From an uncultured Hyphomicrobiales bacterium (GTDB taxonomy: Bacteria; Bacteroidota; Ignavibacteria; Kapaibacteriales; UBA7675), in NCBI GenBank assembly GCA_964445695.1, contig CAYULF010000010.1, positions 57,821-121,820 of the forward strand: 64,000 nucleotides of DNA, written 5' to 3'. This document shows, one piece after another, positions 34,540 through 51,146 of this stretch. Below the pieces are notes generated by a model that saw nothing but the letters and a program-made list of their open reading frames with translations, was not told the DNA's origin and searched no databases. The translations under genes were made by a program, and so were the position numbers. Positions within the stretch are counted from its first letter, which is position 1. Every line of letters begins with the position of its first letter.

Positions 34540-34875
34540 ATGACTGAAAACTCGCTCCACATATCGCACGCATTAACAAACAAGAAGGCTGTTTTTAAAT
34601 CAGGCCGGATTGAGGCGTTTGCTGCGATCCACGGTGAAAAAGCGCCGTACAGCGATCGGTTTAAACAAATTGCGTCCGCGGCATCCATCGATGCGGCCGG
34701 AACAGATGAAAATCTCACATTCTACCAGAACCCGGAACAGACTGGATCCACTTATTCAATTGTCGGCCACATGCGGACCCGGAAGCCGTATGCAGGGATA
34801 ATTGATGTACGACGCCAGAGCGATCACATCAGGACAACCATGGAGTTGAAGGAGGTAGTGACGAGGTCGACCTGA
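34540..34875 (+). CDS. Hypothetical small protein (111 aa); coding status uncertain
   Basis: An ORF in an otherwise gene-free 900-bp gap, with no recognisable motifs. Confidence 0.2.
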   Translation: MTENSLHISHALTNKKAVFKSGRIEAFAAIHGEKAPYSDRFKQIASAASIDAAGTDENLTFYQNPEQTGSTYSIVGHMRTRKPYAGIIDVRRQSDHIRTTMELKEVVTRST

Positions 34876-35191
34876 ACGTCGATTCGTGCGGGCGCAAACC
34901 CGGCCCGGTTTACCGACCGCGGGCGGAGGCGTCTACCCGACGGGAATGCGGAGGAACACATTCCCCGGACAATATGGCGCTCGACGCTATCACCTGATCC
35001 ACCACCGGACAGACACGCCGCGTATCATGCTTGATGCGCGGCGTGTTATTTTTCGGGCCGGCCCTCGTCGAAATTGCGGTACACTTGACGGCCACATCAA
35101 CCGTTACTGTGCCCTGCGCCTGGCGGATGCACCGTCGCGGCGCGGCGGACGCCTGCCGGCGTCGATTCTTCCTCACGCATTTCACAGTTCT

Positions 35192-36049
35192 GTGAACAAT
35201 ATTCGCACCTACTTACGGGACTCGGTCGACCGCATTGACTTTGTCGTCTGGGGACTCGTCATAGTCTTTTTCCAGGTATCGGCGGCGGTCAACGGCGGCG
35301 ACGGGCCCATGTCGCTTCTGGCGGCGCTGGGCATCATCGCGGCTATGCTGCTGATCAGCACTTCAATCGAGGTGTTGATCGGCACGCTGCGCAACATGCC
35401 GGGCATCGGCACGCTGATCGGCTTTATCACAAACGGCCCGGAAGCGCTGGTGCTGCTGATCGGCCTGCTGGACAACGACATTATTTTTGCCTCGTCGACG
35501 CCCTTGGGCTCCAACCCGATGAACGTCCTGCTGTTTTTCCTGGCCACGACGCTGACGGGGACGATGGCGGTGGTCTGGGCGCGCAAGGTTGTGTACCGCT
35601 ATCTCGTTTTTATCGCCACGATAGCCATAGCGCTGAGTTTTTATCTGATTCCGGTCGCCATGTACAGCTCCTGGCTGATTTACTGGCTGATCGGCGTGCT
35701 GGCGATTTCGGGCCTTATCTTTGCGACGCGTCCCGCCGAGGAGCTGCCGGAGGAGGACGTGGCGTTGAGCCGCATCTGGATGCTGCCTGCGCTGGCGGTG
35801 CTGGTCGGTGCTGGTGTGCTGCTGGACTTTGTCGTTTCGATGGCTTCCGACGTTTCGATGGCGCCCAAAGGCGTGATCGGTTTTATCGTGCTCTCGACGA
35901 TGACGTCCTGGCCCGAGTTCAAATCGACGCTGTCGCTGCTGCGCAAGGACATGCCGCTGGCGGCTTTTCTGAATATTCTGGTCAGCAACATCACCAATTT
36001 ATGGCTTGCCTGTCTCGGCGTGCTGATCTACTGGCTGCTTTCGCTCTAG
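35192..36049 (+). CDS. Cation/Ca2+ exchanger-like (CaCA/YrbG-like) membrane protein; start uncertain (GTG 35192 or ATG 35309)
   Basis: Two alpha-repeat-like segments GFITNGPEALVLLIGL and STMTSWPEFKSTLSLL within about 8 TM helices. The upstream Arg-rich part of the ORF is judged non-coding. Confidence 0.5.
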   Translation: MNNIRTYLRDSVDRIDFVVWGLVIVFFQVSAAVNGGDGPMSLLAALGIIAAMLLISTSIEVLIGTLRNMPGIGTLIGFITNGPEALVLLIGLLDNDIIFASSTPLGSNPMNVLLFFLATTLTGTMAVVWARKVVYRYLVFIATIAIALSFYLIPVAMYSSWLIYWLIGVLAISGLIFATRPAEELPEEDVALSRIWMLPALAVLVGAGVLLDFVVSMASDVSMAPKGVIGFIVLSTMTSWPEFKSTLSLLRKDMPLAAFLNILVSNITNLWLACLGVLIYWLLSL

Positions 36050-36372
36050 CTCTTTATTCCCGACGCGTTTATACCCGTTTTTGCGACCGTTCAGAGGCAA
36101 AGGTCGCCCGTTTGCGTTTTTGCAGTTGTGCTGTCGGTTCGGACGTGGCATATTGTCTGCGTTGGATCTTCCGGAGGATGCGACGGAGCTGTGAGGCGGG
36201 AATAAAACTTGTTGCCTAAGCAACGATTTTTCACTGATCGCTTTGAGCCTCGCTTGCAGCTTCGTCTCAGGCTCTTATGACTTTTTTGCTTGTCACCGGG
36301 TTTTCAGACTTCAAGCTTGATGTTGTCGCTCAGCGCCATGCAAACGAACTGCCAGTCTTTCAACGCGACACT

Positions 36373-36420
36373 CAGTGACAAACAAGAGAAAAGCAAGCCG
36401 CCGAACAGGTGAGGAGGCGA
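36373..36420. promoter_or_regulatory. ~50-nt conserved intergenic motif (copy 1), upstream of the yqiJ-flotillin operon
   Basis: cagtgacaaacaagagaaaagcaagccgccgaacagg is nearly identical to 55899-55950 (cagtgacaaacaagaggaaaaacaagccgcaggcggaacag). Confidence 0.4.
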
Positions 36421-36678
36421 AGCGCTCCGCCGTCGCGCGTGCCATGCCGGCCTGTAGCCCGTCGCGACTCCCTGTGCCGCGTCCGCCGGCGGTCGGAATC
36501 GCGCGATTGTGTATCTTCGTGCGCGCCCGACGTCCGCTCGCGTCAAACGGCCGCGCCCGCATTTGCCCGGTCGTTTCGTGAATCTTTTGTCATATTTACC
36601 CGTTGATCGGGCTTCGACAAAAGACGGACAGCGGCGCCTCCGGGCGCGAAAAAAAACTCTCAATTCCGAGGTTCTTCA

Positions 36679-37434
36679 ATGGACCAGTTGCTGGATGCCG
36701 CACTCAGCGCAGTTAACATACCTTTTACGGTATTGTTTGTTCTGGTGCTGTTATATTGGATCACCGTCATTATTGGTCTGCTCGACATCGACTCGCTCGA
36801 TGTGGACGTGCACGCCGATGCGGACTTCGATTTTGACGCAGATCTGGACGTCGATGCCGATATCGACGTCGACGCGGACCTCCATCTGGACGCCGATACA
36901 CATGTTGATGTCGGCAACGCGGAAATCGTCGGCGCGCATGCCGACGGCGCGGTGACGGACATCGGCGTCGATCACGGCGGAATGTTAAACTCGCTGCTGC
37001 TCTTTGCCAACCTCGGTTATATCCCTTTCATGATTGTCTTTTCCTTTATGGTACTGTTCCTCTGGACGGGCGCCATATTGTTAAACTATTACTTTAACCC
37101 CGACCTGGGCCTCGGCATGGCTGCGCTGCTGTTTGTGCCGAACTTCGCCGTCAGTTTTACCGCGATGAAGTTAATAACCTGGCCCCTCAAAAAACTGTTT
37201 TATCACATGCGCCGCGAAGAGCGCGAGATCGAATCCGTTGTGGGCCGCATTTGCGTGCTCACGATGGACGCCAGCCCGGAGCGCCTTTCCCAGGCCACGG
37301 TGGCGCGTCGCGGCGTTCCGCATTTGTTAAACGTCCGCCCGGTTGGCGACGACACGATTCTGCGCGGCAGCAAGGCCGTGGTTGTATCCTACATTGAAGA
37401 TCAGAGCGTGTACCTCGTCCAACCCGTGGACTGA
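36679..37434 (+). CDS. yqiJ: YqiJ-family (DUF1449) membrane protein with C-terminal NfeD-like OB-fold and an acidic (D-x)n repeat
   Basis: TM1, then DVDVHADADFDFDADLDVDADIDVDADLHLDADTHVDV, then 2-3 TM helices, then a C-terminal OB-fold GRICVLT...LRGSKAVVVSYIEDQSVYLVQPV. Sits upstream of SPFH genes as in E. coli yqiJK. Confidence 0.65.
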   Translation: MDQLLDAALSAVNIPFTVLFVLVLLYWITVIIGLLDIDSLDVDVHADADFDFDADLDVDADIDVDADLHLDADTHVDVGNAEIVGAHADGAVTDIGVDHGGMLNSLLLFANLGYIPFMIVFSFMVLFLWTGAILLNYYFNPDLGLGMAALLFVPNFAVSFTAMKLITWPLKKLFYHMRREEREIESVVGRICVLTMDASPERLSQATVARRGVPHLLNVRPVGDDTILRGSKAVVVSYIEDQSVYLVQPVD

Positions 37435-37522
37435 TTCCCCCCAGCAAGACAACTGAATTTGTGTTTAATCTGCGCGCATCGCGGCGGAAGAGTTAACGCT
37501 GCCATCGTGCGGCATTAAAGGA

Positions 37523-38197
37523 ATGCCTATGTTCTCCGGCGTCCTGGTACTGTTGGGTCTTGCACTCGTGCCGATTAACTTTTTCATCATATCCATGTTT
37601 GCCTTTCGCAAGCCGCCGGCGGGATTTGCCCTGGTGCGCAGCGGCTTTGGCGGCATGCGCGTCGGTTTTGCGGGAATGTTTGTTTTCCCCCTGCTGCACC
37701 GCGCGGAGCTGGTGGATATGCGCATGAAAACCGTGGATGTCGATCTCTCCGGTCCCGACGCTGTGGTGTTTAAGGACGGCGTACGCGCCGACGTTCTACT
37801 TCGGATGCAACTGCGAGTTAACCACACTGCTGAATCGGTTATGCAGGTGCACGGCGTTTTCGGCGCAGGCGACCACTTTGCCGAATCGCAATTTCAGAAC
37901 TCCTGGACTGGGCGGTTTGCCGCGGCTGTGCGTCATGTTTTCAGCATGCTTGAATTTTCCGAAGCGGACTCCCTGGAAGCCAAGGACATGATCCTGACGA
38001 TGATTGGCATGGATATGAACGGTTACGTCCTCGAAGACATTTCCGTCCTGCAGTGCCGCAAAAACTCGTCGATCTTTGCCGAGCATGGGCTTGACCTGGA
38101 ATACCGGGAAGGCCTTCTTGTTTGGCACGGAGTCAGAAACGTCGAGATTTTGAGTAGCAGCGAACCCAATAGCGTCGTGCTCAAAGCACGTGTTTAA
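37523..38197 (+). CDS. SPFH/band-7 domain protein, short paralog (N-terminal TM plus SPFH core only, no coiled-coil)
   Basis: PPAGFALVRSGFGGMRVGFAGMFVFPLLHRAELVDMRMKTVDV aligns with the N-terminus of the downstream flotillin (ALVRTGLGGVKVAFNGIMVVPAIHRMELMDISVKRIEI). Confidence 0.65.
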   Translation: MPMFSGVLVLLGLALVPINFFIISMFAFRKPPAGFALVRSGFGGMRVGFAGMFVFPLLHRAELVDMRMKTVDVDLSGPDAVVFKDGVRADVLLRMQLRVNHTAESVMQVHGVFGAGDHFAESQFQNSWTGRFAAAVRHVFSMLEFSEADSLEAKDMILTMIGMDMNGYVLEDISVLQCRKNSSIFAEHGLDLEYREGLLVWHGVRNVEILSSSEPNSVVLKARV

Positions 38198-38273
38198 GTC
38201 CTTAAACGCCCGCGTGCGAGCGGGTGAGAACTGAAAATTTCGAACTTGAAATACAACATTTAATCATCTTTGA

Positions 38274-40271
38274 GTGAGAGGAAATATGCTGGAAAGTTTA
38301 GGGCTTGTAGGCATAGTTGCGACTGCACTGTTTGTCTTTGGTATTGCCGTGTTCATCGTCAAGATGTACCGAAAGGTTGAACAGGGGAAAGCGTTAGTAA
38401 GAACCGGCTTGGGCGGAGTTAAAGTTGCATTTAATGGAATCATGGTTGTTCCCGCCATTCACAGAATGGAGCTGATGGACATCTCTGTTAAACGCATTGA
38501 AATCTCGCGCCTCGGCAAAGCCGGCCTTGTGTGTAAAGACAACATTCGTGCTGACATTAAGGTCGCTTTTTTTGTGCGGGTCAATCAGACAGTCGAGTCT
38601 GTTAGTCAGGTGGCCGGTTCGCTCGGCTGTGAACGCGCATCTTTGCAGGACGCATTGGTCGAACTCTTTGACGCCAAGTTCTCCGAAGCGCTTAAAACAG
38701 TCGGTAAGAAGTTTAACTTCGAAGAACTCTACGAAGCGCGCGTTGAATTCAAACGTGAAATGCTTGAAGTAATCGGCAGAGACCTCAACGGTTACGTTCT
38801 GGAAGATGCGGCGATCGATTACCTCGAACAGACGCCTTTAATGGAGCTTTCGCCCGACAACATTCTGGATGCGGACGGTATCAAGAAGATCACCGATCGC
38901 ACCGCCGCCGAAAACATGTTGACGAACAATATTCGGCGTGAAGAAGAAAAAGTCATCAAGAAACAGGACGTCGAAGCGCGCGAAGCCATCCTGCAGATGG
39001 AGCGTCAACTGGCCGAAACCGAACAGCGCCAGCAAAAGGAAATTGCCGCGATTACCGCGCGTGAACAGTCCGAAGCGCACCAGGTCGAGTATCAGGAAAT
39101 GTTAAAAGCCGAACAGGCCCGCATCCGCACGGAAGAAGAAGTGCGCGTCGCAGAACAAAACCGCGACCGCCAGGTGATTGTCGCCGAGCGCGCCAAACAA
39201 CGCACCGACGCCGTCGAGTCCGAACGCGTCGAAAAAGATCGCCTGCTCGAAAAAACCGAGAAGGAAAAGATCGTCAGCCTGGCCGAAATCGAAAAACAAC
39301 GCGCCGTTGAAGAAGAGCGCAAAAACATTCAGGAAGTCATCCGCCAGCGCGTGATGGTAGAAAAAGCCGTGGTCGAGGAAGAAGAGCGCATCAAAGACAC
39401 GCGCGCCAAAGCCGCTGCCGACCGCGAAAAACTCGTGGCCGTCACCAAAGCGCAGGAAGTCGCCGAAGAAGCCAAAATCAGCGAAGTCGTCGCCGCCGAA
39501 GCCGCGCGTGAAGCCGCGCGACTGAACGCCGAACGCAAAGTCATCGACGCGGACGCCGACAGAACAACCGCCGAAAAACGCGCCGAAGCGATGAAAACCA
39601 TTGCCGACGCCCGCGCCGAAGAAGAAGCCGTGCTCGGCCTCTCCGAGGTTCGCGTGATGGAAGCGCGCGCGCTGGCAATCGAAAAAGAAGGCGGCGCCGA
39701 GGCGCGCGTCATCGAACTCAAAGCCGGTTCGGAAGCCAAAGGTATACGCGAGAAAGCCGAAGCCATGAAGGAATTCGACGGCGTCGGTCGCGAACACGAA
39801 GAGTTTAAACTGCGCCTCAACAAAGAAAAAGAGGTCGAACTGGCCGGCATCAATATTAACAAAGACATCGCCCTGGCGCAGGCCGAAATCATCCGCGATG
39901 CGCTCAGCTCCGCCAAGATCGACATCATCGGCGGTGAAACGATGTTCTTTGAAAACATCGTCAACGCCGTATCACGCGGCAAAGCGCTCGACCGCATGGT
40001 CGACAACAGCAGCGTGCTGCAGGATCTGCGCAAAGGCATTCTGGGCGAGGGCGGCGGCAACATCGCCTCCGGAATCCGCGGCATCATGGATCGCCTGGGC
40101 GTCAACTGGGAAGATGTTAAAAACATCAGCGTTTCCGCTCTGCTGACGCAGTTGATGACGCGCGCCGACAGCGACACACACGCCATGCTCAGCGACTGGT
40201 TTAACACCGTCAAGGGTACGCCGCTGGCCGACCAGCAGGTCTCCAGCGTCATGTCGCGGCTGCGCTCCTGA
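38274..40271 (+). CDS. yqiK: Flotillin-family protein (YqiK/FloT-like: TM, SPFH domain, long EA-rich coiled coil, conserved C-terminal domain)
   Basis: 665 aa with the SPFH core, a ~250-aa charged heptad region (AEQ...REEE...) and a flotillin C-terminal block GGETMFFENIVNAVSRG. Confidence 0.85.
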   Translation: MRGNMLESLGLVGIVATALFVFGIAVFIVKMYRKVEQGKALVRTGLGGVKVAFNGIMVVPAIHRMELMDISVKRIEISRLGKAGLVCKDNIRADIKVAFFVRVNQTVESVSQVAGSLGCERASLQDALVELFDAKFSEALKTVGKKFNFEELYEARVEFKREMLEVIGRDLNGYVLEDAAIDYLEQTPLMELSPDNILDADGIKKITDRTAAENMLTNNIRREEEKVIKKQDVEAREAILQMERQLAETEQRQQKEIAAITAREQSEAHQVEYQEMLKAEQARIRTEEEVRVAEQNRDRQVIVAERAKQRTDAVESERVEKDRLLEKTEKEKIVSLAEIEKQRAVEEERKNIQEVIRQRVMVEKAVVEEEERIKDTRAKAAADREKLVAVTKAQEVAEEAKISEVVAAEAAREAARLNAERKVIDADADRTTAEKRAEAMKTIADARAEEEAVLGLSEVRVMEARALAIEKEGGAEARVIELKAGSEAKGIREKAEAMKEFDGVGREHEEFKLRLNKEKEVELAGININKDIALAQAEIIRDALSSAKIDIIGGETMFFENIVNAVSRGKALDRMVDNSSVLQDLRKGILGEGGGNIASGIRGIMDRLGVNWEDVKNISVSALLTQLMTRADSDTHAMLSDWFNTVKGTPLADQQVSSVMSRLRS

Positions 40272-40385
40272 TCCGCCAGTAAACAGACCGACGGACGCCG
40301 TCACGGCCACGCCTTAAACAGCAGACGGGCGGCGTCGATTCAACTCGAACACCGAATAAACTTAACAAGCTGAGCGTGCCTGGAT

Positions 40386-43300
40386 ATGGCGGATACGGAA
40401 ATACAACAGGAACAGGCAAAATCGAGTGCGGAAAAAGAGGCGGGATCAAATCGTCTTGACGAAGGCGCTTACGGCCTGATACGCGGGCGCATGCGGGCCG
40501 CCGCCGGCGAACTGCTGCGGGATCTGGATCACCTTAACAAAGAGCGCCGCGCCGTCTATGGCGCAGTCTCAACCGAACTGCTCGGCAGCGAACGCATCAG
40601 CACGATAAACAACTGCGTTCCGCGCGACATGACGCCGATCGGTTCGCGTTTTCTCTTCGGCTACAACGTACATATCGGCCTGCGCTCGGAGACGCGGCTG
40701 GAAGACGTCTTTGCCATGTACGAGTGGCGCGACGGTCATCTGGTGAGTTCAACGCTCGACAGCATCGACGACCCGCAGTTTAAACGCGAATTCGCCGAAC
40801 TGTACAAATACTACAAAAACACGGCCTTTGCCAAGTTTGCGCGTCGCGGCGTCTACCTCTACATGAAGTTTCGCATCGGCTCCAGCGTCGACGACTTCAA
40901 GGCGTTTAAGTGGCAGATCAACGACGACGGCACGTTGACCTATATCAATAACCGCGGCGACCTGGAGTTGCACTATCCGCCGCAACATGAATTTGAGTGG
41001 AAAAGGCTCGGACGCGACGCACAGCGAACTGCCGGCACTGACTACCTCTCGGTCAGCGAGAAGCTGTTTATCTCGATCGAAAATGCGGTGTTAACGTTCC
41101 GCGTTGAGGACAATACCGAGCAAGGCGCTACAATTGCCGGCGAGCCGGTGGCCGAAGCCGAGCAAAAGCTGGACGACATGTCCATTGAATTTGCCGAGCT
41201 CGAGCATTTGATAATTCTGCGAATCCGGCCTTATCGCGAAGAGAAACTGCGCTACTTCGTGTTCAACGGCAAGACGCAGGAACTTAAACGCGTGGACGGC
41301 CTGGCGGAGGCGGCTATCCTGTTGCCGGAGAACCACGGGCTGATTTTTCCGCGCGGCAGTTACTTAAACGACGGCACATTGCAGGAGCTGGACACGCGCC
41401 AGGCGGACATGTTGTTCGAGCGTCGTTATCCCGCGCCTAACGGCGAGGATTTCCTCTTTGTGTTTTACAACCGCGCCGACGGCGTCTACGTGCTTCTGCA
41501 GTACAATCTGATCGAGCAGGTGCTGGCGCCGCCCCTGGTCTGCAACGGGTTTTCAATTTTCGACGACGGGCGTCTGCTGTGTTTTCGCGTTGAAGAACTG
41601 GCACAGAAACACCACATGGTTCAGATCTGGCGCACGCCGTTCATGGTGGACATGCCGGTCGCAACAGAACAAAGCGATTCGCCACTGCTGAAAATCGGCA
41701 ACCGCGAAATCGTGCGCTGCATGGCAGAGTGTCACGAACTCTACGGCCTGACGCAGAAAGAAGAAATCTACGCCGATCTTTACCTCGACATCACGCGCAA
41801 AGGCGGAGACATACGCGACGCCTATTTCTGGCTGGAGCAGGTTGAAGCCGGCGCGATTATTAAACACATCGACGGAATCCGCTCCGCTGCCGAAGCCGCG
41901 ATCGACGAATACGACAAACTGCGCGCGGTCAAGGCCGACACAAGCCAGAAGTTTAACGAGTTCCGCAGCGAGGTGGAGGAATTTTTAACGACTTCGGCGG
42001 CGCAGCGCCCGGGGTCGATCGAAGAGTTTGTAGCCGCGCTGGCTCAGGTGCGCGCTCTGCGTGGGCGGGCCGCCGCCGTGGCGGAGTTGCCGCACTGCGA
42101 CGTCGAAGCCGTTGAACAACTGGACGCCGCCATCCGCGCACATGGCGAGGAACTGGCGCACGGCTGTGTTGAGTTTCTGCTGCGCGACGACGCGTTGGAC
42201 GGTTATCGCGCGCGCATCGAAGTGCTGGACGGTGAAACTGCACAGGCGCGGAAAGCTGCGGACCTGATCGAACCGCTGGCGTCGCTGGACCAGCTCTCGA
42301 CCGACCTCGAAATGTTAATCGACGTGGTTGTCAACCTGGACATCGAAGACAGCACGCAGAGCACGCGGATTGTAGAATCGATTTCCGCGCAGTTCACCGA
42401 CATCAACCGCGTGCGTGCGGGCATGCGCTCGCGGCGTTCGGATCTGGCGCGCGGCGAAGGCGAAGCCGAGTTCCGCGCGCAGCTGAATCTTATACAGCAG
42501 AGTCTGTTAAACTACCTGGAACTGGCCGATACGCCCGTCCGTTGCGACGAATTCACCACCAAGCTGCTGATCCAGATCGAAGAACTCGAAGCGCGCTTTG
42601 CCGACTTTGACGGTTTCCTGGATGAACTGGGTCTTAAACGCGACGACGTTTACAACGCTTTTGAACAGAAAAAAGTCGCGCTGACGGAAAAGTTAAACAA
42701 ACGCGCGCTGGCCTTGACGCGTTCGGCCGAGCGCATTCTGGGCGGCATCCGCGAACGCCTGTCCCGCTTCGGCAAAGCCGATGAAATTTTCGCCTGGTTT
42801 TCGACCGATCAGATGGTCGCCAAGGTACGCGACATCTCGCAGTCCCTGCGCGAGGAACTGGGCGACAGCACCCGCGCCGACGATCTCTGGACGCGTTTAA
42901 ACACATTGCGCGAAGATGCTCTGCGCAATCTCAAGGACGCCGATGAACTCTTCGTCGATGGTCCCGACCGCGTAAAATTCGGCCGCCAGATTTTTTCCGT
43001 TGTCAACGACAAACCGCATCTCAGCCTGGTTGTTCGCGATGACGAAGACTATTTTCACGTCGGCGGCACGCAGTACTTTCTACCCGTGCACGACGAGGAG
43101 TTAAACGCTCTGCGCGACGTCCGCGATCAGGAGATCGCCTTTGAGAACAACCATGTCTACCGTGCCGAGTACCTGGCTTTTGAAATCTGGGACGGCTACG
43201 GTGCGCCCGGGCTGCTTGAGGCGGTCGACGGCCGGGCTCTGGACGAGGCGTCGCTTTCATTTGTGCAGCACCACCTTAACAAGAAACCCTCGGATGCGTA

Positions 43301-45353
43301 CGTCAAGGGCGTGCACGACCACGATGCCGCCAAGATTCTGGCCGCCCTGTTAACCATTGAGTCGCAGGCGGGGCTGCTGGCCTGGCGCGACGCCGACCGC
43401 GCTTTGGCCTGGTGTTATCATGTGGACCGCGGCCGGGACGAATCATTGCAATCGCTCAACGAACAGATTGAAGCGATGCGCGTTGTGCGGACGCTCTACG
43501 AACTGCCGTACGAGTCCAGATATGTTGTGGACCGCCTGGAGCGCGAAATCGCGCGTTACTGCGACGACAGCGATTTTGCTCTCGACGCCGACACACACGC
43601 TGCGGCGGAATATCTGTTTAATGTTTTGACGCGCAATCAGGCGCGTGAAGGCGTCGAAGGTTTTGTGTTGAACGCGCGCGCGCGCGACATGGCCGCTGCG
43701 TTCCGCGAAGCGATGCGCGTCAGTCCCAAACCGCGCGCCTTTGAAGAATCGCTTCAGGGCCGCGAGTCCGCCGCGCTGCGTCTGCGCATCGCGCTGATCT
43801 GGTTGAATGCCCGTCGTGAAGGTCCGAACTCGGCGGCGAATGCCGTTGACGCGGCGCTTTTGTTAAGTGTGCCGGAAGGAATGGAATCGGCGTTCACCTT
43901 CGGCGAGCTGGAAACACGGGTAACCGTTGACGGTCTGCACGGCCGGCACGTGCGCGTGGAAAAGGGCGCGCTGCAACTGGATTATCACGGTTTTTTAACA
44001 TGCGTTGGCCGGTTTGCAACAAATGCAGCGCTGCGTTTTCAACAGTTGCAGGCGCGCAAACAGCATCTGCTGGAAGAGCACCGCCGTGTACTGCGTCTCG
44101 AAAAACTGCAGCCCGGCGTGCCGTCCTACTTTGTGCGTAACCGATTGCTGACGCGCGTCTACCTGCCGATGATCGGCGAAAACTTTGCACGTCAGATCGG
44201 AACCTCCGGGCGCGACACGCGCAGCGACCGCAGCGGCTTGCTGTTGTTAATCTCGCCGCCGGGCTACGGCAAAACGAGTTTGATCGAATACGTCGCCAAA
44301 CGCCTCGGCATGCTCTACGTCAAGGTCGACGGGCCGGCGCTGGGACACGACGTGACCTCGCTCGATCCGGCGACCGCGCCTAACTCCGCCGCGCGCTCCG
44401 AATTGATGAAGTTAAACCAGGCTTTTGCCCTGGGCGACAACGTCATGTTGTACATAGATGACATTCAACACTGCAACCCGGAGTTCCTGCAGAAGTTTAT
44501 TCCGCTCTGCGACGCACAGCGCCGCATAGAAGGCGTGTTTAACGGGGAGGCGCACAGCTTTGACCTGCGCGGTCGGCGTTTTGCCGTGGTTATGGCCGGC
44601 AATCCCTACACGGAAAGCGGCTCGGCATTTGTGATCCCCGACATGCTGGCCAACCGCGCCGACGTGTTTAACCTGGGCGACATCTCCACGGCCGAGCAGG
44701 AAGCCTTTGAGCTCTCCTTTGTTGAAAACTGTTTAACCTCCAATGCCACGACGCGGCGCATGGCATTGACGCATCGCGAGGACGTGCCTGCCTTTGTGCG
44801 CTGGGCGCGCAGCAAGTCGCGCGAAGGCCTCGAGTTCAAAGGCTCGTATTCATCCGCCGAGATGCAGGACATCGTGAATGTGATCGGCAAACTGATGCGC
44901 GTGCGCGATACCGTCCTGGCCGTCAACAACGCCTACATCCGCTCGGCGGCAACGGCCGAAGCCTACCGCACCGAGCCGCCTTTTCAGTTGCAGGGTTCCT
45001 ATCGCGACATGAATAAAATCGCCGCCAACGTGCTGGCCGCGATGACCGAGGAAGAGCTGGATAAACTCGTTGAAAATCACTACGTCAACGAAGCGCAGAC
45101 ATTGGCGGGCGACAGCGAAGCCAATCTGTTGAAATGGCGCGAAATTGTCGGCGTCATGACGGAACCTGAACGCAAGCGCTACGAAGATATCAAACGCCGC
45201 TTCGGCGACAATCAATTGTTCGGCGGAGCGGGCGACGGCGATCCGCTGCAGGAAACAATCAGGCAGATTAAACAACTCAATTCCGGCGTGCACGCCATCG
45301 CCCGTGCAATCAGCAATCACGCCGGCAACAAGGGCGGAAGTTTAAATGAGTGA
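40386..45353 (+). CDS. Giant (1655-aa) multidomain ATPase: N-terminal domain of unknown function, long alpha-helical middle region, C-terminal AAA-type P-loop domain (DUF3686-like, sometimes annotated as a DNA-repair ATPase)
   Basis: Walker A LLLLISPPGYGKTSLIEY (nt ~44238-44290), Walker B VMLYIDDIQH (nt ~44447), arginine-rich sensor region FAVVMAGNPYTESG. Family assignment is from memory and should be verified. Confidence 0.6.
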   Translation: MADTEIQQEQAKSSAEKEAGSNRLDEGAYGLIRGRMRAAAGELLRDLDHLNKERRAVYGAVSTELLGSERISTINNCVPRDMTPIGSRFLFGYNVHIGLRSETRLEDVFAMYEWRDGHLVSSTLDSIDDPQFKREFAELYKYYKNTAFAKFARRGVYLYMKFRIGSSVDDFKAFKWQINDDGTLTYINNRGDLELHYPPQHEFEWKRLGRDAQRTAGTDYLSVSEKLFISIENAVLTFRVEDNTEQGATIAGEPVAEAEQKLDDMSIEFAELEHLIILRIRPYREEKLRYFVFNGKTQELKRVDGLAEAAILLPENHGLIFPRGSYLNDGTLQELDTRQADMLFERRYPAPNGEDFLFVFYNRADGVYVLLQYNLIEQVLAPPLVCNGFSIFDDGRLLCFRVEELAQKHHMVQIWRTPFMVDMPVATEQSDSPLLKIGNREIVRCMAECHELYGLTQKEEIYADLYLDITRKGGDIRDAYFWLEQVEAGAIIKHIDGIRSAAEAAIDEYDKLRAVKADTSQKFNEFRSEVEEFLTTSAAQRPGSIEEFVAALAQVRALRGRAAAVAELPHCDVEAVEQLDAAIRAHGEELAHGCVEFLLRDDALDGYRARIEVLDGETAQARKAADLIEPLASLDQLSTDLEMLIDVVVNLDIEDSTQSTRIVESISAQFTDINRVRAGMRSRRSDLARGEGEAEFRAQLNLIQQSLLNYLELADTPVRCDEFTTKLLIQIEELEARFADFDGFLDELGLKRDDVYNAFEQKKVALTEKLNKRALALTRSAERILGGIRERLSRFGKADEIFAWFSTDQMVAKVRDISQSLREELGDSTRADDLWTRLNTLREDALRNLKDADELFVDGPDRVKFGRQIFSVVNDKPHLSLVVRDDEDYFHVGGTQYFLPVHDEELNALRDVRDQEIAFENNHVYRAEYLAFEIWDGYGAPGLLEAVDGRALDEASLSFVQHHLNKKPSDAYVKGVHDHDAAKILAALLTIESQAGLLAWRDADRALAWCYHVDRGRDESLQSLNEQIEAMRVVRTLYELPYESRYVVDRLEREIARYCDDSDFALDADTHAAAEYLFNVLTRNQAREGVEGFVLNARARDMAAAFREAMRVSPKPRAFEESLQGRESAALRLRIALIWLNARREGPNSAANAVDAALLLSVPEGMESAFTFGELETRVTVDGLHGRHVRVEKGALQLDYHGFLTCVGRFATNAALRFQQLQARKQHLLEEHRRVLRLEKLQPGVPSYFVRNRLLTRVYLPMIGENFARQIGTSGRDTRSDRSGLLLLISPPGYGKTSLIEYVAKRLGMLYVKVDGPALGHDVTSLDPATAPNSAARSELMKLNQAFALGDNVMLYIDDIQHCNPEFLQKFIPLCDAQRRIEGVFNGEAHSFDLRGRRFAVVMAGNPYTESGSAFVIPDMLANRADVFNLGDISTAEQEAFELSFVENCLTSNATTRRMALTHREDVPAFVRWARSKSREGLEFKGSYSSAEMQDIVNVIGKLMRVRDTVLAVNNAYIRSAATAEAYRTEPPFQLQGSYRDMNKIAANVLAAMTEEELDKLVENHYVNEAQTLAGDSEANLLKWREIVGVMTEPERKRYEDIKRRFGDNQLFGGAGDGDPLQETIRQIKQLNSGVHAIARAISNHAGNKGGSLNE

Positions 45354-46200
45354 TTTCAATCCCGTTGTTCGCGAACTGCATGTGTATCCGCTCAAATCGG
45401 CCGGCGGAATTGCAGTTGATCGCGCCGCGGTCGATATGCGCGGTCTGGAATTCGATCGGCGCTGGATGTTGGTCGACGCGGAGGGAATGTTTATCTCGCA
45501 GCGCGAATACGCGCGCATGGCGTTGTTAAACATGCGCCCGGCCGACGGCGGATTTGTGATTGAAGCGCCGTCCATGCCACCGCTGTTTATAGCCCACGAC
45601 CTGCCGATGAGCGACCGCCGTATGGTGCAGGTCTGGAGCAGCCGCCTGCGGGCCTGGACATATCCGGCCGCGGTGGACGAGTGGTTCACGCAGTTCCTCG
45701 GTGTCGAATGTCATTTAACTGCAATGCCGGACGACGGCAAACGCATCGCCAATCCGCGCAACACGCGCTCGATTACTCCGATTCGTTTTGTCGACGGTTA
45801 TCCGATTTTGCTGCTCTCGGACGCCTCGCTGGCCGATCTGAACAGTCGGCTTGCCACGCCTCTGCCTCACGACCGCTTTCGCGCAAACATGATCATTTCC
45901 GGCTGCGAGGCGTTTGCTGAAGACGGCTGGGACCGCTTTTCCATCGGCGACGTCGAGTTTGAAACCATCAAGCCATGCCCGCGCTGCGTCGTGACGACGA
46001 TCGATCAGCGCAATGCGCAGAAATCGGACGAGCCGCTGCGCACGCTGGCGTCCTACCGCAATCGCGGCGGCGCGGTGGAATTCGGTATGTACGCGCGGGC
46101 GCTCAACGCGGGGACCATAAACTGCGGGGCTGAAATTCTGCTTACATTGCGTCGGTCGGAAGCGGACAGCCAGGATCAAGATTCCCGGCCGACTACGTGA
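45346..46200 (+). CDS. MOSC-domain protein (YcbX/YiiM-like MoCo-sulfurase C-terminal beta-barrel)
   Basis: MOSC N-terminal beta-barrel plus core VDGYPILLLSDASLADLNSRL...RFRANMIISG...ETIKPCPRCVVTTIDQ. Start overlaps the giant ATPase stop by 8 nt. Confidence 0.75.
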   Translation: MSDFNPVVRELHVYPLKSAGGIAVDRAAVDMRGLEFDRRWMLVDAEGMFISQREYARMALLNMRPADGGFVIEAPSMPPLFIAHDLPMSDRRMVQVWSSRLRAWTYPAAVDEWFTQFLGVECHLTAMPDDGKRIANPRNTRSITPIRFVDGYPILLLSDASLADLNSRLATPLPHDRFRANMIISGCEAFAEDGWDRFSIGDVEFETIKPCPRCVVTTIDQRNAQKSDEPLRTLASYRNRGGAVEFGMYARALNAGTINCGAEILLTLRRSEADSQDQDSRPTT

Positions 46201-46210
46201 AACTACGTAA

Positions 46211-46244
46211 GAGCTGTGAGCCCTAAGGGCTCACAGCTCTTTTC
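46211..46244 (+). terminator. Rho-independent terminator (13-bp perfect stem gagctgtgagccc-taa-gggctcacagctc followed by a T-run)
   Basis: Perfect palindrome immediately after the MOSC gene stop. Confidence 0.8.
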
Positions 46245-46287
46245 CTGCGTTCCGATTCCTTCAGAACCCAATTCCCGAGAGAACCCC

Positions 46288-46536
46288 ATGGGCATCTTCT
46301 GGCTTCTGCTCATAGTCATCGTCGTACAGGGACTGTTGGCCCTGATCTCCACCCGCCTCGGCGCGCGCGAGTCGGCCGGCCTGCGCCTGGCCGTCAACGC
46401 GGCTCTCATGGGCATGTGTGCGGCGCTGTTTATCCTGGGCGGCGGCGGCCTGCTATTTCTCTTGATGGCTCTGGCTATCGGCCTGCTCATGTGGCGCGAG
46501 ATTGTTCGTCTGCGTGCTCCGCAGGATCGCCGGTGA
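46288..46536 (+). CDS. Small two-TM membrane protein (82 aa), hypothetical
   Basis: MGIFWLLLIVIVVQGLLALIS...MGMCAALFILGGGGLLFLLMALAIGLLMW is strongly hydrophobic with a basic C-terminus. Confidence 0.4.
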   Translation: MGIFWLLLIVIVVQGLLALISTRLGARESAGLRLAVNAALMGMCAALFILGGGGLLFLLMALAIGLLMWREIVRLRAPQDRR

Positions 46537-46592
46537 CGCCGTCTTCCCGGTCGGATGTTTTTATAACTCAGAATCATTGACTTCAGGACTCC

Positions 46593-47936
46593 ATGTTTCC
46601 ATCCAGACGCAGCGGCTTTTTTCTGTTTGCCGCCTCCTGTATCGGCCTGCTATTTTTTTGTTTGTCAACGGGAGCGAATGCTCAGAGCGACAGGGAAGTC
46701 ACCGCGGCGATGCGCGGTCTGCTGCGAACGCTCGACGGCGCGCCGGATCCAAACAACCCGGCGGCTTTCATTTTGGGTCTGCGTGACGAACAAGAGAATC
46801 TCAAGGGGTATGTTTTACGGGTAAACGGAGCGGGTATCGAGATAAACGGGCCGCTGGATTTTCTGCCGCTGCCGTACGGCGACAGTTTGCAGTATGTCTA
46901 CAAATACACCGAAATGGACATCACACGGGAGGTCGGGGCGGAAGTGCGCATGAAAGCCGGCGTCGACACCCTGCTGGATTGCAGCAGCCTCAGCAGCGTA
47001 TTCCTGACGAACGACGTTTCCACGGCGCGCAAACGGGGCAATCTTACGATCGACCATGCGGGCGCCGACAGCTCACTGATCCGGGAGGTCCGGGAATATC
47101 AAATGCGGTTCGGCGAAAACAAAATCGCGTGGTACAACGATTGCAGCACCCAACTGGAATATTGCGGCGCCAACGTCCTGACCGTCACCGCGCGATATAC
47201 CGGCGATACGGGCGGCAACCAGACGTATCGCGAGATAGAAGAATACAGCCTGCCGATCGGCCAGGTGATGAACAGCACAATCTCGGGTTGCGATGAATAT
47301 CTGAAGCCGGAGAACCTTGCTGTCGCCTCCACCGCGCCGCTGCGGCTGGAAGATTTTGTCGACTCAACCGAGCTGGCGCAGGTGCGCGCACGCGTCGTTG
47401 CCGATCTGGAGTACCGCCGCAAAAACGGCGTGGCCTCGGGTGATCTGGCGGAGTTTGATCGCATCGCCGTGGCATTCGATGCGTCCCTGCTGCCGACGGT
47501 GGAACGCCAGCAGACGCTGAACTGCATGGATCCCTGTACGGAGGACATTCAGACTGTGTCATGCCGCGTGGTGCGTTGGCTGGGGCGGATGTACGCAATT
47601 GCCGGGACGAACTGCTGGGGCAACTACCTCTGCACCGGCGGAATTCCGTATCGATTTGAAACGCTCGTGGGCGCGGTGGGCGATGAATCCGATGCGCGCA
47701 GCATGCCTTTTGACCCGGCCGATCTGCTTGCCGCGGGAATCGTGGATGCGGCGCTCAGTGCGGACGGCAGCCTGGCGCTGTTTGTGCACGAAAAGGGGCT
47801 GGCGGTCTACGACGTCGCTGCGCAGCGACTGCTCTGGCAGTTGCCTTTTGATCCGCAAAAAACGCGGATCGTGATGGTCAAAAGCGTTGGCGGCGACAAT
47901 ATGAAACGACTATTGGACGTTTTGGCGGACGACTGA
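46593..47936 (+). CDS. Secreted hypothetical protein (447 aa) with signal peptide
   Basis: Leader MFPSRRSGFFLFAASCIGLLFFCLSTGANAQ, followed by a long ORF with coding-like codon usage and several Cys pairs. Confidence 0.5.
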   Translation: MFPSRRSGFFLFAASCIGLLFFCLSTGANAQSDREVTAAMRGLLRTLDGAPDPNNPAAFILGLRDEQENLKGYVLRVNGAGIEINGPLDFLPLPYGDSLQYVYKYTEMDITREVGAEVRMKAGVDTLLDCSSLSSVFLTNDVSTARKRGNLTIDHAGADSSLIREVREYQMRFGENKIAWYNDCSTQLEYCGANVLTVTARYTGDTGGNQTYREIEEYSLPIGQVMNSTISGCDEYLKPENLAVASTAPLRLEDFVDSTELAQVRARVVADLEYRRKNGVASGDLAEFDRIAVAFDASLLPTVERQQTLNCMDPCTEDIQTVSCRVVRWLGRMYAIAGTNCWGNYLCTGGIPYRFETLVGAVGDESDARSMPFDPADLLAAGIVDAALSADGSLALFVHEKGLAVYDVAAQRLLWQLPFDPQKTRIVMVKSVGGDNMKRLLDVLADD

Positions 47937-48104: not shown

Positions 48105-49415
48105 ATGAGTCCTGAAAACTTCAAGTACATAGCCACGGCGATATTTGCCCTGGCTGTCCTGCACACCTTCGTTTCAAGCTATTTCAACAAACTGGCGTCG
48201 AAGTATCCGGAAGGTTCGCCGCTCGAAAATCTCTTCCACTTCCTCGGGGAAATCGAAGCGGTTTTCGGTTTGTGGCTCATTCCGCTTTTTTACGCCTACT
48301 GGGCATCCTTCGGCTTGACGGAGACGCTGGATTACTTTGACTCCGTCACGCCAAAACTGATGGAACCGCTGTTTGTCATTGTCATAATGGTGATGGCGGC
48401 CACGCGGCCAATCCTCAAAGCCACGCAGAATCTGGTGGCCATGGCGTCGAAGCTGGTGCCGATCCCCAGCGCTACGGCGCGTTACTACGCGACTGTGCTG
48501 GCTATAACGCCGCTACTCGGTTCGTTTATCACCGAACCGGCGGCCATGACGATTTCGGCTTTACTGCTCAGCAAGTTTCTCTACGAAAACAAACCCAGCC
48601 CGCAGTTGATGTACACCACGATCGCCCTGCTGTTCGTGAACGTCTCGATCGGCGGCACGCTGACGCACTTTGCGGCTCCGCCGGTGCTTATGGTCGCGAA
48701 CAAGTGGCACTGGGACATCAACTTCACCTACATGGCGACGCATTTCGGCTGGAAGGCGGCGGTGTCGATCTTTGTTTGTACCAGCGTCGTGACAACGATG
48801 TTTTTCCGCGAGTTCAAACGTCTGGACGGCATGCCGAAACAGGTGGAGGACATGAGGCCGATTCCGTTCTGGGTGACGGGTGTGCACGTGATTGCGCTGG
48901 CGTGGTCCGTCGTGATGGCGCACCATCCGCTGCTGCTGATCCTCGGATTCATGTTTTTCTTCGGCTGGTGCATCATCACAAATGAGTACCAGAGCGAGCT
49001 GCAGCTCAAACCGGCGCTGTTGGTCGGATTTTTCCTGGCCGGCCTGGTGACGCACGGCAGCCTGCAGGACTGGTGGATCAGCCCGATCATTGCCCAGCTG
49101 GAGAGCGTGCCGCTCTTTATCGGCTCGACGATTCTGACGGCCTTCAACGACAATGCCGCGATTACGTATCTCTCGACGCTGGCGCTCGACCAGGGATTCT
49201 CCGGACCGTTTACGGAGATGGGACTCAAGAAATACGCCATCGTGGCCGGCGCCGTGACGGGCGGCGGTTTGACGATTATCGCCAACGCGCCCAACCCGGC
49301 CGGGAACGCCATCCTGTCGAAGTACTTCCCCGGCGGCAGCGTCAACCCCGGCAAACTTTTTCTGTTTGCCTTGCCTTTTACCATCATCGCTGCGCTCTGT
49401 TTCATGCTGCTTTGA
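48105..49415 (+). CDS. Putative Na+/H+ antiporter-family (PF07399-like) multi-pass membrane protein, tandem paralog 1
   Basis: 436 aa with about 11-12 TM helices and conserved blocks FITEPAAMTI, GGTLTHFAAPPVLMVA and TAFNDNAAITYLS. About 60% identical to the next gene. Confidence 0.55.
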   Translation: MSPENFKYIATAIFALAVLHTFVSSYFNKLASKYPEGSPLENLFHFLGEIEAVFGLWLIPLFYAYWASFGLTETLDYFDSVTPKLMEPLFVIVIMVMAATRPILKATQNLVAMASKLVPIPSATARYYATVLAITPLLGSFITEPAAMTISALLLSKFLYENKPSPQLMYTTIALLFVNVSIGGTLTHFAAPPVLMVANKWHWDINFTYMATHFGWKAAVSIFVCTSVVTTMFFREFKRLDGMPKQVEDMRPIPFWVTGVHVIALAWSVVMAHHPLLLILGFMFFFGWCIITNEYQSELQLKPALLVGFFLAGLVTHGSLQDWWISPIIAQLESVPLFIGSTILTAFNDNAAITYLSTLALDQGFSGPFTEMGLKKYAIVAGAVTGGGLTIIANAPNPAGNAILSKYFPGGSVNPGKLFLFALPFTIIAALCFMLL

Positions 49416-49680
49416 GCGGCGCGATTGAAAAATTTTCAAGGCCGTCGGGAGGTCTGCGCACAGACTGCGCGTTCCGACGGCCTTTTCATTTCAAACCGCT
49501 GCTGTGCCTTTCCATCCCGATTCGGGTCGGTTTCATCCCGGTATTTCGCCATTCGGCTCAACATCGGCTGCATGCCTGCGTTGTATTGGCCTGATTGTGG
49601 GCGGACGCCTTGCGTCTTTTCACGTATGTTTGCTCTGCGTACCTTCCATTGTAATCTGAAACCGAAAGCGAGTGACTTAC

Positions 49681-50982: not shown

Positions 50983-51146
50983 ACCGGTCTTTCAGCCGAA
51001 TCCGACTCTGAAAATCTGTTCAAACCGCAGCCGGCATTTCTGAGCGCTTCGCCGCCATGGGATGTCGGCTTGCTTTTTGCTTTTGTTTGTCAACGAGAGA
51101 GAAACAACAAACAGAAGAGTTGGCCACAAACCGCACAACTTCCGAG

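Follow-up and report, generated by a model that had tools for sequence, protein, structure and literature searches.

The closest described relatives of the locus studied here are the operons that Ravi et al. (mSystems 2024, PMC11237479) reported by comparative genomics, with Dokdonia donghaensis as an example, and in which a YqiJ/YuaF protein, a band-7/flotillin protein and a protein combining a beta-propeller, a coiled coil and an AAA+ domain are encoded together. The full form of this operon includes a CesT-PspA pair, whereas abbreviated operons without the pair are widely distributed, and a chaperone-like role in membrane dynamics was proposed. A homologous two-gene membrane module is represented by E. 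coli yqiJ-yqiK and B. subtilis yuaF-floT (NfeD2-SPFH2; Hinderhofer et al. 2009, PMC2636767); in E. coli, unlike the present locus, no ATPase gene follows yqiK. Duplicated SPFH genes in operons of the NfeD2-SPFH2 type are also known, e.g. from cyanobacteria. MoxR-type AAA+ proteins and beta-propellers occur together, as here, in the MoxR-vWA-beta-propeller ternary conflict systems (Kaur et al., eLife 2020, PMC7159879). Finally, HflK/C-FtsH and Vps4-ESCRT-III each combine a membrane scaffold polymer with a dedicated AAA+ machine, HflK/C being an SPFH cage; their likeness to the present locus is one of logic, not of homology.

The locus lies in the 64-kb stretch of DNA that was analysed as a whole (the window) and consists of five genes, all verified as open reading frames on the + strand. 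They encode a YqiJ/YuaF-type (NfeD2-like) membrane protein of 251 aa (36679-37434), a truncated SPFH paralog of 224 aa (37523-38197), a YqiK-type flotillin of 665 aa (38274-40271), a giant soluble ATPase of 1655 aa (40386-45353) and a YcbX-like MOSC protein of 284 aa (45346-46200). Gene callers also predict five genes on public contigs with identical DNA, placing the starts of two of them slightly later (about 37529 and 38286), so the co-directional arrangement given by the first-pass annotation stands. The first-pass annotation also held that the combination matched no function that could be named; the combination as such is already described, since the three proteins, their order and the architecture of the ATPase (propeller, coiled coil, AAA+) are those of the operon of Ravi et al. 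(PMC11237479). PspA and CesT are absent from the entire 64-kb window, and the locus therefore corresponds to the abbreviated form. It differs from the full form in lacking the CesT-PspA pair and the LexA-like regulator, and in having the truncated SPFH gene and the overlapping MOSC gene as additions. That study (PMC11237479) contains no experiment and assigns the ATPase to no AAA+ clade, whereas we here place it next to the MoxR proteins CbbQ and NorQ and quantify its genomic linkage in both directions. The trio is thus a widespread, experimentally uncharacterised module described once by comparative genomics, and the window holds a variant of it with two extra genes.

The linkage between flotillin and ATPase is close to obligate in both directions. 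Among the 66 ATPase-anchored loci with enough upstream DNA, the flotillin gene was found directly upstream and on the same strand in 63, with a YqiJ gene 5' of it in 54. This set spans Planctomycetota, Verrucomicrobiota, Bacteroidota, Desulfobacterota, Clostridia, Kiritimatiellota, Omnitrophota and Fibrobacterota. Flavobacterium, Hymenobacter, Gimesia and Roseibacillus are among the more tractable carriers. When metagenome contigs were instead anchored on the flotillin, the ATPase gene followed directly downstream in 61 of 63, and YqiJ preceded the flotillin gene in 58 of 71 flotillin-anchored loci. The ATPase family is accordingly not one that usually occurs apart from SPFH genes. Other conserved neighbours of the ATPase are limited to CesT, PspA and HTH-S24, each present only sometimes, and no gene downstream of the ATPase is conserved across the ATPase-anchored loci. 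Of 80 metagenome loci, 39 carry CesT_Tir_1 and PspA_IM30 immediately upstream, as do 18 of the 83 genome loci; in a nineteenth genome locus PspA is encoded elsewhere on the opposite strand. The conserved system hence comprises three genes, encoding a YqiJ/NfeD-like protein with three transmembrane (TM) segments, a YqiK-type flotillin and a DUF3686 ATPase. The functional unit of five genes suggested by the first-pass annotation is not upheld, as MOSC was found in 0 of about 160 other loci and a second SPFH gene in only one other lineage, with an independent origin. From these two counts, the combination of scaffold, ATPase and MOSC is a lineage-specific accident of gene order. The description of the locus as system-like and functionally unexplained fared better, given the near-obligate linkage and the fact that no well-characterised family absorbs the full-length ATPase.

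A few loci depart from the common arrangement. Three (L043, L044 and L078) carry the ATPase gene without an upstream flotillin gene; they were considered as an alternative partner set, which was rejected as their neighbours are unrelated. In some loci the flotillin gene is separated from the ATPase gene by small inserted open reading frames of DUF559 and PDDEXK_3 endonuclease-like type, and Bacteroidota loci have a divergent LexA/CI-like HTH-S24 repressor.

With regard to the two membrane proteins of the core, Pfam scans of the single sequences gave no match for the YqiJ-like protein and neither Band_7 nor Flot for the 665-aa flotillin. Both identities were nevertheless recovered by hhalign with family profiles, and the domain calls of the first-pass annotation stand with these qualifications. 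A profile of 18 YqiJ-family sequences aligned to E. coli YqiJ with 95.5% probability (E 1.4e-8, 177 columns), and the flotillin profile to E. coli YqiK with 100% probability (E 2e-41, 30% identity, 410 columns). Across 20 flotillin family members, Band_7 matched only three and Flot none. Against the PDB, the YqiJ profile gave no match and the flotillin profile only a weak one to QmcA. The YqiJ-like protein has three hydrophobic segments by hydropathy followed by a soluble C-terminal tail of 70 aa, with an Asp-rich alternating loop at residues ~37-100, and its gene stands directly upstream of the SPFH genes, in the manner of NfeD2 partners. The flotillin (661 aa if read from the ATG at 38286) consists of a single N-terminal TM segment, an SPFH domain, a helix of about 300 aa rich in Glu, Ala, Lys and Arg, and a conserved C-terminal region. 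Its family is longer than E. coli YqiK (665-745 versus 553 aa), and its C-terminal 185 aa failed to align with the end of YqiK (hhalign probability 1%), so that any cage or roof geometry is an assumption. By eye, FKL...KIDIIGG in this region resembles FKL...IKIIQVDG of YqiK. The flotillin is better conserved than the ATPase, being 54-69% identical to orthologues in other phyla compared with 44-48%. All five genes are under purifying selection, the dN/dS values of the three core genes lying between 0.07 and 0.12 (0.066 for YqiJ and 0.11 for the flotillin).

The ATPase matches Pfam DUF3686 (4e-157), DUF7902 and AAA. A helix at residues 28-58 is followed by a beta-propeller-like domain at ~64-416 (DUF3686, nt 40509-41828), for which Foldseek found WD40 and prolyl-oligopeptidase propellers (E 2e-6), and by helical bundles at 433-699 that include DUF7902 (nt 42189-42440). 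The structure prediction called for earlier covered the propeller-like domain and the bundles, up to residue 699. Past a middle region (residues 700-1150), the C-terminal part holds a MoxR-like AAA+ core at residues 1286-1409 (nt 44241-44612), a lid and a helical tail. No TM segment was seen by hydropathy, and the Pfam and topology analysis revealed neither a protease or membrane-insertion domain nor a TM anchor. Full-length family members are uniformly 1550-1930 aa long.

The closest structural matches of the AAA+ core are the MoxR chaperones CbbQ and NorQ, and we place the module adjoining them. Walker A (with K1296), the sensor-1 Asn, the candidate arginines and the lid GSYR align motif for motif with the canonical MoxR protein encoded in the window, Walker A, sensor 1 and lid following one another in the order seen in MoxR proteins. 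Sequence similarity to MoxR is marginal (hhalign probability 23%), and the Pfam MoxR model AAA_3 did not match. Compared with the MoxR class (CbbQ, NorQ, RavA and canonical MoxR), the ATPase is about five times larger and has an N-terminal propeller and helical arms in place of a VWA/MIDAS partner; no VWA/MIDAS co-chaperone gene is conserved among the neighbours of the ATPase loci. Moreover, its Walker B motif has an invariant Asp-Asp (D1358-D1359) and not Asp-Glu, and ATP hydrolysis may therefore be slow or regulatory. Profile searches gave P-loop matches to p97 and RuvB only, the sequence had no match in the PDB, NCBIfam offered no informative family, and a literature search for DUF3686, DUF7902, PF12458 and PF25472 returned no paper. 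The protein thus lies outside the well-characterised families, domain searches assigning its full length to none of them.

Both additional genes are found only here and in one sibling genome (L084). The short SPFH protein (Pfam Band_7, 3.9e-7) has one N-terminal TM segment and an SPFH domain, lacks the coiled coil and the C-terminal region, and shares 39% identity with residues 24-181 of the adjacent flotillin. Its dN/dS is relaxed (0.32), with non-synonymous change relative to synonymous change proceeding 3-5 times faster. Judged from these comparisons, the gene is a young, fast-evolving, lineage-specific duplicate of the flotillin N-terminus. Elsewhere a second short SPFH gene was seen only in L028, and as its product is just 23% identical, it arose independently. 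The first-pass annotation was right that a truncated paralog exists, but not in making it part of the expanded module. The idea that it encodes a conserved second subunit, comparable to the pairing of HflK with HflC, was rejected, the gene occurring in two lineages only and with independent origins; in this lineage the protein might modulate or cap the assembly of the cage. The MOSC protein matches Pfam MOSC_N and MOSC (7.8e-25 and 3.4e-24), as proteins of the YcbX/mARC type do, and its homologues are thousands of ordinary proteins at about 45% identity, some of them named YcbX. It contains KPCPRCVVTTID, which we take to resemble the mARC signature CxRCxxTTVDP, and, unlike E. coli YcbX, it has no C-terminal ferredoxin domain. 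The gene (dN/dS 0.15) overlaps the ATPase gene by 8 nt (ATGAGTGA), an overlap noted earlier and also kept in the sibling genome. Its sequence and position indicate an ordinary YcbX-like enzyme, added in this lineage and translationally coupled, that is probably a passenger. MOSC was rejected as a member of the system on its absence from the other loci.

Starting from the observed gene order, homologies, domain architecture, topology and two-way linkage, we infer a physical complex in which the ATPase would form a ring and have the scaffold as its substrate. In our judgement the chances are about even that the core is a flotillin scaffold with a dedicated ATP-driven remodeller, serving membrane maintenance or envelope stress. 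The three proteins would then work as one machine at the inner membrane, on its cytoplasmic side. Held by its N-terminal TM anchor, the flotillin would be expected to build an SPFH-type cage or cap by oligomerising, with the 3-TM YqiJ protein as its NfeD-type partner. The soluble ATPase would assemble into a MoxR-like AAA+ ring that docks onto this scaffold by way of its beta-propellers and long helical arms, and would spend ATP on assembling, disassembling or otherwise remodelling the flotillin polymer; in the many relatives with CesT-PspA just upstream, the same would apply to the PspA/ESCRT-III-like polymer. The physiological role would be in membrane maintenance or the response to envelope stress. 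A more specific proposal, which we put forward only tentatively, would make the DUF3686 protein the first ATP-driven factor dedicated to assembling or disassembling a bacterial flotillin cage, a hexameric MoxR-like ring with six propeller-tipped arms that grip the flotillin or PspA lattice, and with the truncated SPFH protein acting as a chain-terminating regulator of cage size. The parallels with HflK/C-FtsH and Vps4-ESCRT-III have their limits: FtsH is a membrane-anchored protease inside its cage, whereas the present ATPase is soluble, MoxR-like and devoid of a protease domain; and Vps4 belongs to the classical AAA clade. A point of likeness is that PspA, which half of the related loci encode, is a member of the ESCRT-III superfamily. 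Against the remodeller stands the fact that characterised MoxR proteins serve cofactor insertion or complex maturation together with VWA/MIDAS partners, and not polymer disassembly. So do the lack of a linked VWA protein, the lack of PspA within 64 kb, the Asp-Asp Walker B motif and the failed alignment of the flotillin C-terminal region to YqiK.

The same linkage data fit equally well with a holdase-unfoldase arrangement, in which unfolded or damaged membrane proteins would be confined or stabilised by the flotillin/YqiJ assembly and the AAA+ ATPase would extract, refold or hand over these clients and not act on the scaffold. S. aureus FloA-NfeD is reported to stabilise unfolded proteins without ATP (PMC11222466; summarised in PMC13086221), an activity that an ATP-dependent partner would complement, and MoxR-class ATPases are chaperone-like (PMC7159879), while HflK/C cages enclose the AAA+ protease FtsH. 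We nonetheless regard this explanation as rather unlikely: the ATPase is without a TM anchor or any domain for proteolysis or membrane insertion, client-type genes are not conserved nearby, and the propeller with its long helical arms would rather suit an adaptor for a large regular assembly. An integrated system of all five genes, for example with a redox or detoxifying activity at a flotillin microdomain, could draw on the overlap kept in the sibling, on purifying selection throughout and on the single hairpin that follows MOSC, no strong one lying between the genes. It is improbable in view of the roughly 160 other loci without MOSC, the very large and generic YcbX-like family from which this enzyme comes, and a short SPFH gene that recurs in just one other lineage, with an independent origin, and evolves 3-5 times faster in its non-synonymous relative to synonymous changes.

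A defence role, also raised by the first-pass annotation, found no support in PADLOC, whose sole match was IetA (E 0.0073, 13.7 bits, a P-loop stretch of 26 residues). A system of phage defence or biological conflict, such as a relative of the ternary systems or a membrane-acting abortive-infection module, is suggested by the theme of MoxR with a beta-propeller in PMC7159879, by the bpMoxR model in Pfam, and by the endonuclease-like insertions and LexA/CI-like repressors of some loci. However, the systems of PMC7159879 are spread over three separate proteins and involve a vWA co-chaperone and effectors that vary, whereas here vWA and effector are missing and the SPFH partner is constant. From phylum to phylum the loci keep a uniform composition and order and show none of the diversification that conflict systems typically undergo, and the neighbours are housekeeping or transport genes, which together make this explanation very improbable. 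Least credible of all, with hardly any probability left to it, is that the protein is the 'DNA repair ATPase' of the Pfam DUF3686 description and NCBI product names and has its membrane neighbours by coincidence. A similarity to RuvB confined to the P-loop (E 0.006, far below the cut-off) and the LexA-like regulator at some Bacteroidota loci speak for it. They are opposed by the near-obligate linkage to two membrane proteins, by best structural matches to CbbQ and NorQ, by the failure to detect a nuclease, helicase or DNA-binding domain in the ATPase or a nuclease partner beside it, and by the empty literature search for DUF3686. The database name is misleading; its probable origin is a coiled-coil resemblance to proteins of the SbcC/Rad50 type.

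The function of bacterial flotillins and the opening, closing and turnover of SPFH cages are questions of long standing. The present family, with 429 to 1200 clusters at 50% identity, joins a flotillin in many phyla to a very large and near-obligate AAA+ partner and offers a concrete experimental handle on them, since the partner is a single ATPase with a clear Walker A motif that can be mutated and the effect measured on flotillin and PspA assemblies. If the ATPase is indeed a remodeller of the flotillin scaffold, SPFH scaffolds in a large part of the bacteria would undergo active cycling of the kind that Vps4 imposes on ESCRT-III. The analysis also corrects the DNA repair name by setting the motor beside the MoxR chaperones, and it separates the conserved core from its passengers, MOSC and the short SPFH gene, so that the five-gene combination is not over-interpreted.

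The genes of the locus are closely spaced (88, 76 and 114 nt, followed by the 8-nt overlap), and the locus neighbours are housekeeping or transport genes, with an ECF sigma factor encoded nearby at 33736-34302. No strong hairpin lies between the five genes, and one is located 9 nt past the MOSC stop, a perfect GC-rich hairpin of 15 bp (46209-46241, + strand; dG -31.5 kcal/mol, z -6.4) that is a possible intrinsic terminator. The 'strong terminator' earlier placed at 46211 is supported only in part, because the stable hairpin has a U-tract of just 4 nt, was not flagged by a consensus terminator scan and has its left arm deleted in the sibling genome. An Rfam search of 35900-46700 and a sigma-70 promoter scan gave no match and nothing above chance, respectively. 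Upstream of the first gene we measured 629 nt of non-coding DNA (36050-36678, + strand), in line with the 630 bp first noted; it is a likely promoter or leader region, is 81% identical to that of the sibling overall with blocks at 88-94%, and contains a small hairpin with a T-run at 36209-36226. The motif said to be repeated in the window was confirmed as GACAAACAAGAGRAAAA (36377-36393); a consensus RNA fold for it was unsupported (-0.74 kcal/mol), and it has six matches in the window against 0.18 expected.

The five co-directional genes of the first-pass annotation are present on the + strand: a YqiJ-like gene (36679-37434, 251 aa), a short SPFH gene (37523-38197, 224 aa), a flotillin gene (38274-40271, 665 aa), the giant ATPase gene (40386-45353) and a MOSC gene (45346-46200). 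The first four are separated by gaps of 88, 76 and 114 nt, in order. Public contigs with identical DNA carry the same five gene calls, with slightly later starts for the short SPFH and flotillin genes (222 and 661 aa). The 8-nt overlap claimed for the ATPase and MOSC genes (ATGAGTGA) was seen and is kept in the sibling genome L084. The strong terminator placed at 46211 held up in part: a perfect 15-bp hairpin (46209-46241; dG -31.5 kcal/mol, z -6.4) lies 9 nt past the MOSC stop, but it has four U's only, was not flagged by the terminator scan, and its left arm is gone from the sibling copy. We regard it as a plausible candidate rather than a proven terminator.

More than 3000 relatives of the ATPase are present in a 90%-clustered database, most of them called "DNA repair ATPase" or lacking a name, and the N-terminal 700 residues of the ATPase gave 1200, 891 and 429 clusters at 50% identity for E<=0.001, E<=1e-10 and E<=1e-30, respectively. 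The length of complete members is uniform, at about 1550-1930 aa. We fetched 80 ATPase-anchored genome loci spanning Planctomycetota, Verrucomicrobiota, Kiritimatiellota, Bacteroidota, Desulfobacterota, Clostridia, Halanaerobiales, Omnitrophota and Fibrobacterota, and upstream genes were counted only in the 66 loci whose upstream sequence reached 3.5 kb or more. A flotillin gene lay directly upstream on the same strand in 63 of these, and a YqiJ gene was also detectable by tblastn in 54 of the 66; the three loci without upstream flotillin had unrelated neighbours. When metagenome contigs were anchored on the flotillin (63 loci whose downstream sequence reached 1.5 kb or more), the ATPase was the next gene on the same strand in 61. 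The ATPase family is thus not usually found apart from SPFH genes, and this two-way linkage bears out the proposal of a system-like module tightly linked to them. All-against-all clustering of neighbouring ORFs in the ATPase-anchored loci gave no other broadly conserved gene, and none downstream. The conserved unit comprises three genes (YqiJ, flotillin and ATPase). Conservation is higher in the flotillin than in the ATPase, with 54% versus 44% identity to a planctomycete orthologue.

The MOSC and short SPFH genes are recent add-ons to this trio and not, as first proposed, parts of a conserved system. None of about 160 other ATPase- or flotillin-anchored loci contains a MOSC gene, and a second, short SPFH gene is present in only one of them, L028 (Sphingobacteriales). 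Since the L028 gene shares 23% identity with the short SPFH of the window and 24% with its own neighbour, and that of the window is 39% identical to its adjoining flotillin, the two are independent duplications. The sibling genome contains the same five genes, its ATPase being 89% identical, and dN/dS between the two was 0.066 for YqiJ, 0.11 for flotillin, 0.12 for the ATPase, 0.15 for MOSC and 0.32 for the short SPFH, a paralog that is intact and under relaxed constraint. The product of the MOSC gene matched MOSC_N and MOSC in Pfam and is one of a very large, ordinary family of YcbX-like proteins.

With regard to the individual proteins, the 224-aa product, the short SPFH protein, matched Band_7 in Pfam (3.9e-7). 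The Pfam scan gave no match for the 251-aa and 665-aa proteins, and their identities were settled with profiles built from orthologues. The 251-aa family profile matched E. coli YqiJ (hhalign probability 95.5%, E 1.4e-8), in agreement with the initial assignment, and the 665-aa profile matched E. coli YqiK (100%, E 2e-41, 30% identity over 410 columns). The term "full flotillin" is supported for the SPFH and coiled-coil parts and is tentative for the C-terminal part: the last 185 residues are strongly conserved inside the family, gave no alignment to the YqiK C-terminus in an hhalign comparison, and no family member matched Pfam Flot. As judged by hydropathy, a single TM segment is present at the N-terminus of both the flotillin and the short SPFH protein, none in the ATPase and MOSC proteins, and three in the YqiJ-like protein, with an Asp-rich loop between the first and second. 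This loop (residues ~37-100) alternates Asp and hydrophobic residues, 21 of its 64 residues being acidic; its DxDxD pattern recurs throughout the aligned family and might serve to bind cations at the membrane surface.

Pfam matches in the ATPase were DUF3686 (4e-157), DUF7902 and, weakly, AAA/AAA_5 at residues 1286-1409. In the AlphaFold2 model of residues 1-700 (pLDDT 84.6), a long helix (28-58) is followed by an all-beta domain (~64-416), after which come helical bundles (433-699). Foldseek matched the beta domain to beta-propellers in the PDB, including DCAF1 WD40 (E 2e-6, probability 1.0, target-normalised TM 0.44), the prolyl oligopeptidase propeller, IFT-A, Kelch and clathrin, so that modelling supports a propeller plus helical bundles up to residue 699. 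In the model of residues 1150-1655 (pLDDT 71 overall and 85-93 in the AAA core), a classic AAA+ alpha/beta core has a beta-hairpin ahead of the sensor-1 strand and is accompanied by a lid and a helical tail. Structure comparison ranked CbbQ/NorQ ahead of ClpA (13.5), Skd3, dynein and midasin (~12.9-13.0). The hhalign alignment to the canonical MoxR of the window was weak (probability 23%); in it, Walker A, Walker B, sensor 1, the NRAD arginine and the lid GSYR/SPRA motif match position for position. Walker A (GYGKT), sensor-1 N1406 and R1424 are invariant among 16 diverse members, as is a Walker B with Asp-Asp instead of Asp-Glu. The motor can thus be placed as MoxR-like, and its DD Walker B is unusual. 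The canonical MoxR belongs to an operon (16051-24976; SpoIIM-like, DUF4129, DUF4350, MoxR (AAA_3, 2.7e-63), DUF58) about 13 kb upstream of the flotillin operon, which makes the giant ATPase a further, divergent MoxR-like protein of this genome.

The module, whose gene combination was at first taken as unnamed, has already been described by Ravi et al. (mSystems 2024, PMC11237479), who found abbreviated operons without PspA to be widely distributed and whose supplementary table lists a Dokdonia example with the same gene order as here. The window shares the trio order with that module but differs in lacking CesT-PspA and in carrying the MOSC and short SPFH genes; it represents a lineage-specific variant of a module that comparative genomics has already recognised. 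Our literature search found no paper mentioning DUF3686 or DUF7902 and no experimental study of the module, and the classic SPFH surveys report operons of the NfeD-SPFH type as well as SPFH gene duplications, with no mention of an ATPase partner. New here are the numbers for the two-way linkage, the placement of the motor as MoxR-like with its DD Walker B, the structural support through residue 699 and the demonstration that two genes are recent add-ons.

Nineteen genome loci and 39 of the 80 metagenome loci carry a PspA_IM30 gene, which in all but one locus immediately precedes YqiJ in the same orientation and usually follows a CesT_Tir_1 gene; neither PspA nor CesT occurs anywhere in the 64-kb window. 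In 17 genome loci, most of which also have PspA, the operon is preceded by a divergent HTH_3 + Peptidase_S24 (LexA/CI-like) gene (for example 3932-4729 (-) in locus L006, with 16 further loci largely from Bacteroidota). The order CesT-PspA-YqiJ-flotillin-ATPase behind a repressor of the self-cleaving type hints at damage- or signal-induced derepression in Bacteroidota. In several unrelated genomes, small DUF559 or PDDEXK_3 endonuclease-like ORFs lie between the flotillin and ATPase genes (L041 9347-9904; L011 9519-9938; also L042, L013, L061 and L030) and may represent selfish elements inserted where the intergenic gap tolerates them.

SPFH proteins form membrane-attached cages (HflK/C around FtsH, QmcA-YbbJ, flotillin), PspA is an ESCRT-III-type polymer, and MoxR-class AAA+ rings remodel protein complexes. 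The homologies, topology, domain order, two-way linkage across phyla and purifying selection are direct observations; beyond them, we consider it an evenly balanced proposition that a ring-forming ATPase reshapes a flotillin/PspA lattice. The soluble ATPase would form a ring, its helical arms and propellers would reach the flotillin (and PspA) lattice, and ATP would be spent on assembling, disassembling or reshaping this lattice during membrane maintenance or envelope stress. The main rival, rather unlikely in our judgement, is that the ATPase would process client proteins held by a flotillin/NfeD holdase, by analogy with S. aureus FloA-NfeD, which is reported to stabilise unfolded proteins without ATP (PMC11222466).

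An integrated five-gene system that includes MOSC is improbable, given the absence of MOSC from the roughly 160 other loci and its large, ordinary family, and a role in defence even more so. DNA repair is hardly credible: Pfam, NCBIfam and PDB sequence/profile searches found no nuclease, helicase or DNA-binding module in the ATPase, and the "DNA repair" label is therefore without support. We infer that this name most likely stems from coiled-coil similarity.

On its 5' side, the operon is preceded by 629 nt without a credible ORF. The motif in this region is indeed repeated across the window, GACAAACAAGAGRAAAA having six intergenic copies against 0.18 expected (26743-26759(+), 32412-32428(-), 36377-36393(+), 51075-51091(-), 54118-54134(-) and 55903-55919(+)). 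Similarity extends over about 70 nt among three of the copies and over some 50-70 nt (…GCAAGCCGC…) among several. Each of the three + copies is located 263-302 nt 5' of a + strand gene start (27014, 36679 and 56166), and two - copies lie in gaps without a downstream gene. The motif is conserved in the sibling genome and gave no Rfam match and no consensus fold. The gene at 56166-57224, with a copy upstream, encodes a Tle1-like T6SS phospholipase catalytic domain protein (3.6e-78).

Further upstream are an ECF sigma and TPR anti-sigma-like gene pair (32741-34302, -) and, adjoining it at 34540-36049 (+), an ORF of 111 aa and a membrane protein of 387 aa with weak similarity to Na_Ca_ex (34886-36049), an order also seen in the relatives L002 and L084. 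This arrangement may have a regulatory role. Downstream lie two tandem Na_H_antiport_3 paralogs (48105-49415 and 49672-50982; 64% protein identity), which show up as a direct-repeat set with 1567-nt spacing. Elsewhere, a ScpB-domain protein (4113-6002) contains very long Asp/Glu-rich tracts from 9- and 12-nt periodic repeats (4323-4592, 5400-5734). Other repeats are a 31-nt tandem repeat x3 (1331-1423), a 285-nt direct repeat (1420-2119; 93% identical, copies 415 nt apart) and an intergenic 33-nt tandem repeat x3 (51145-51243).
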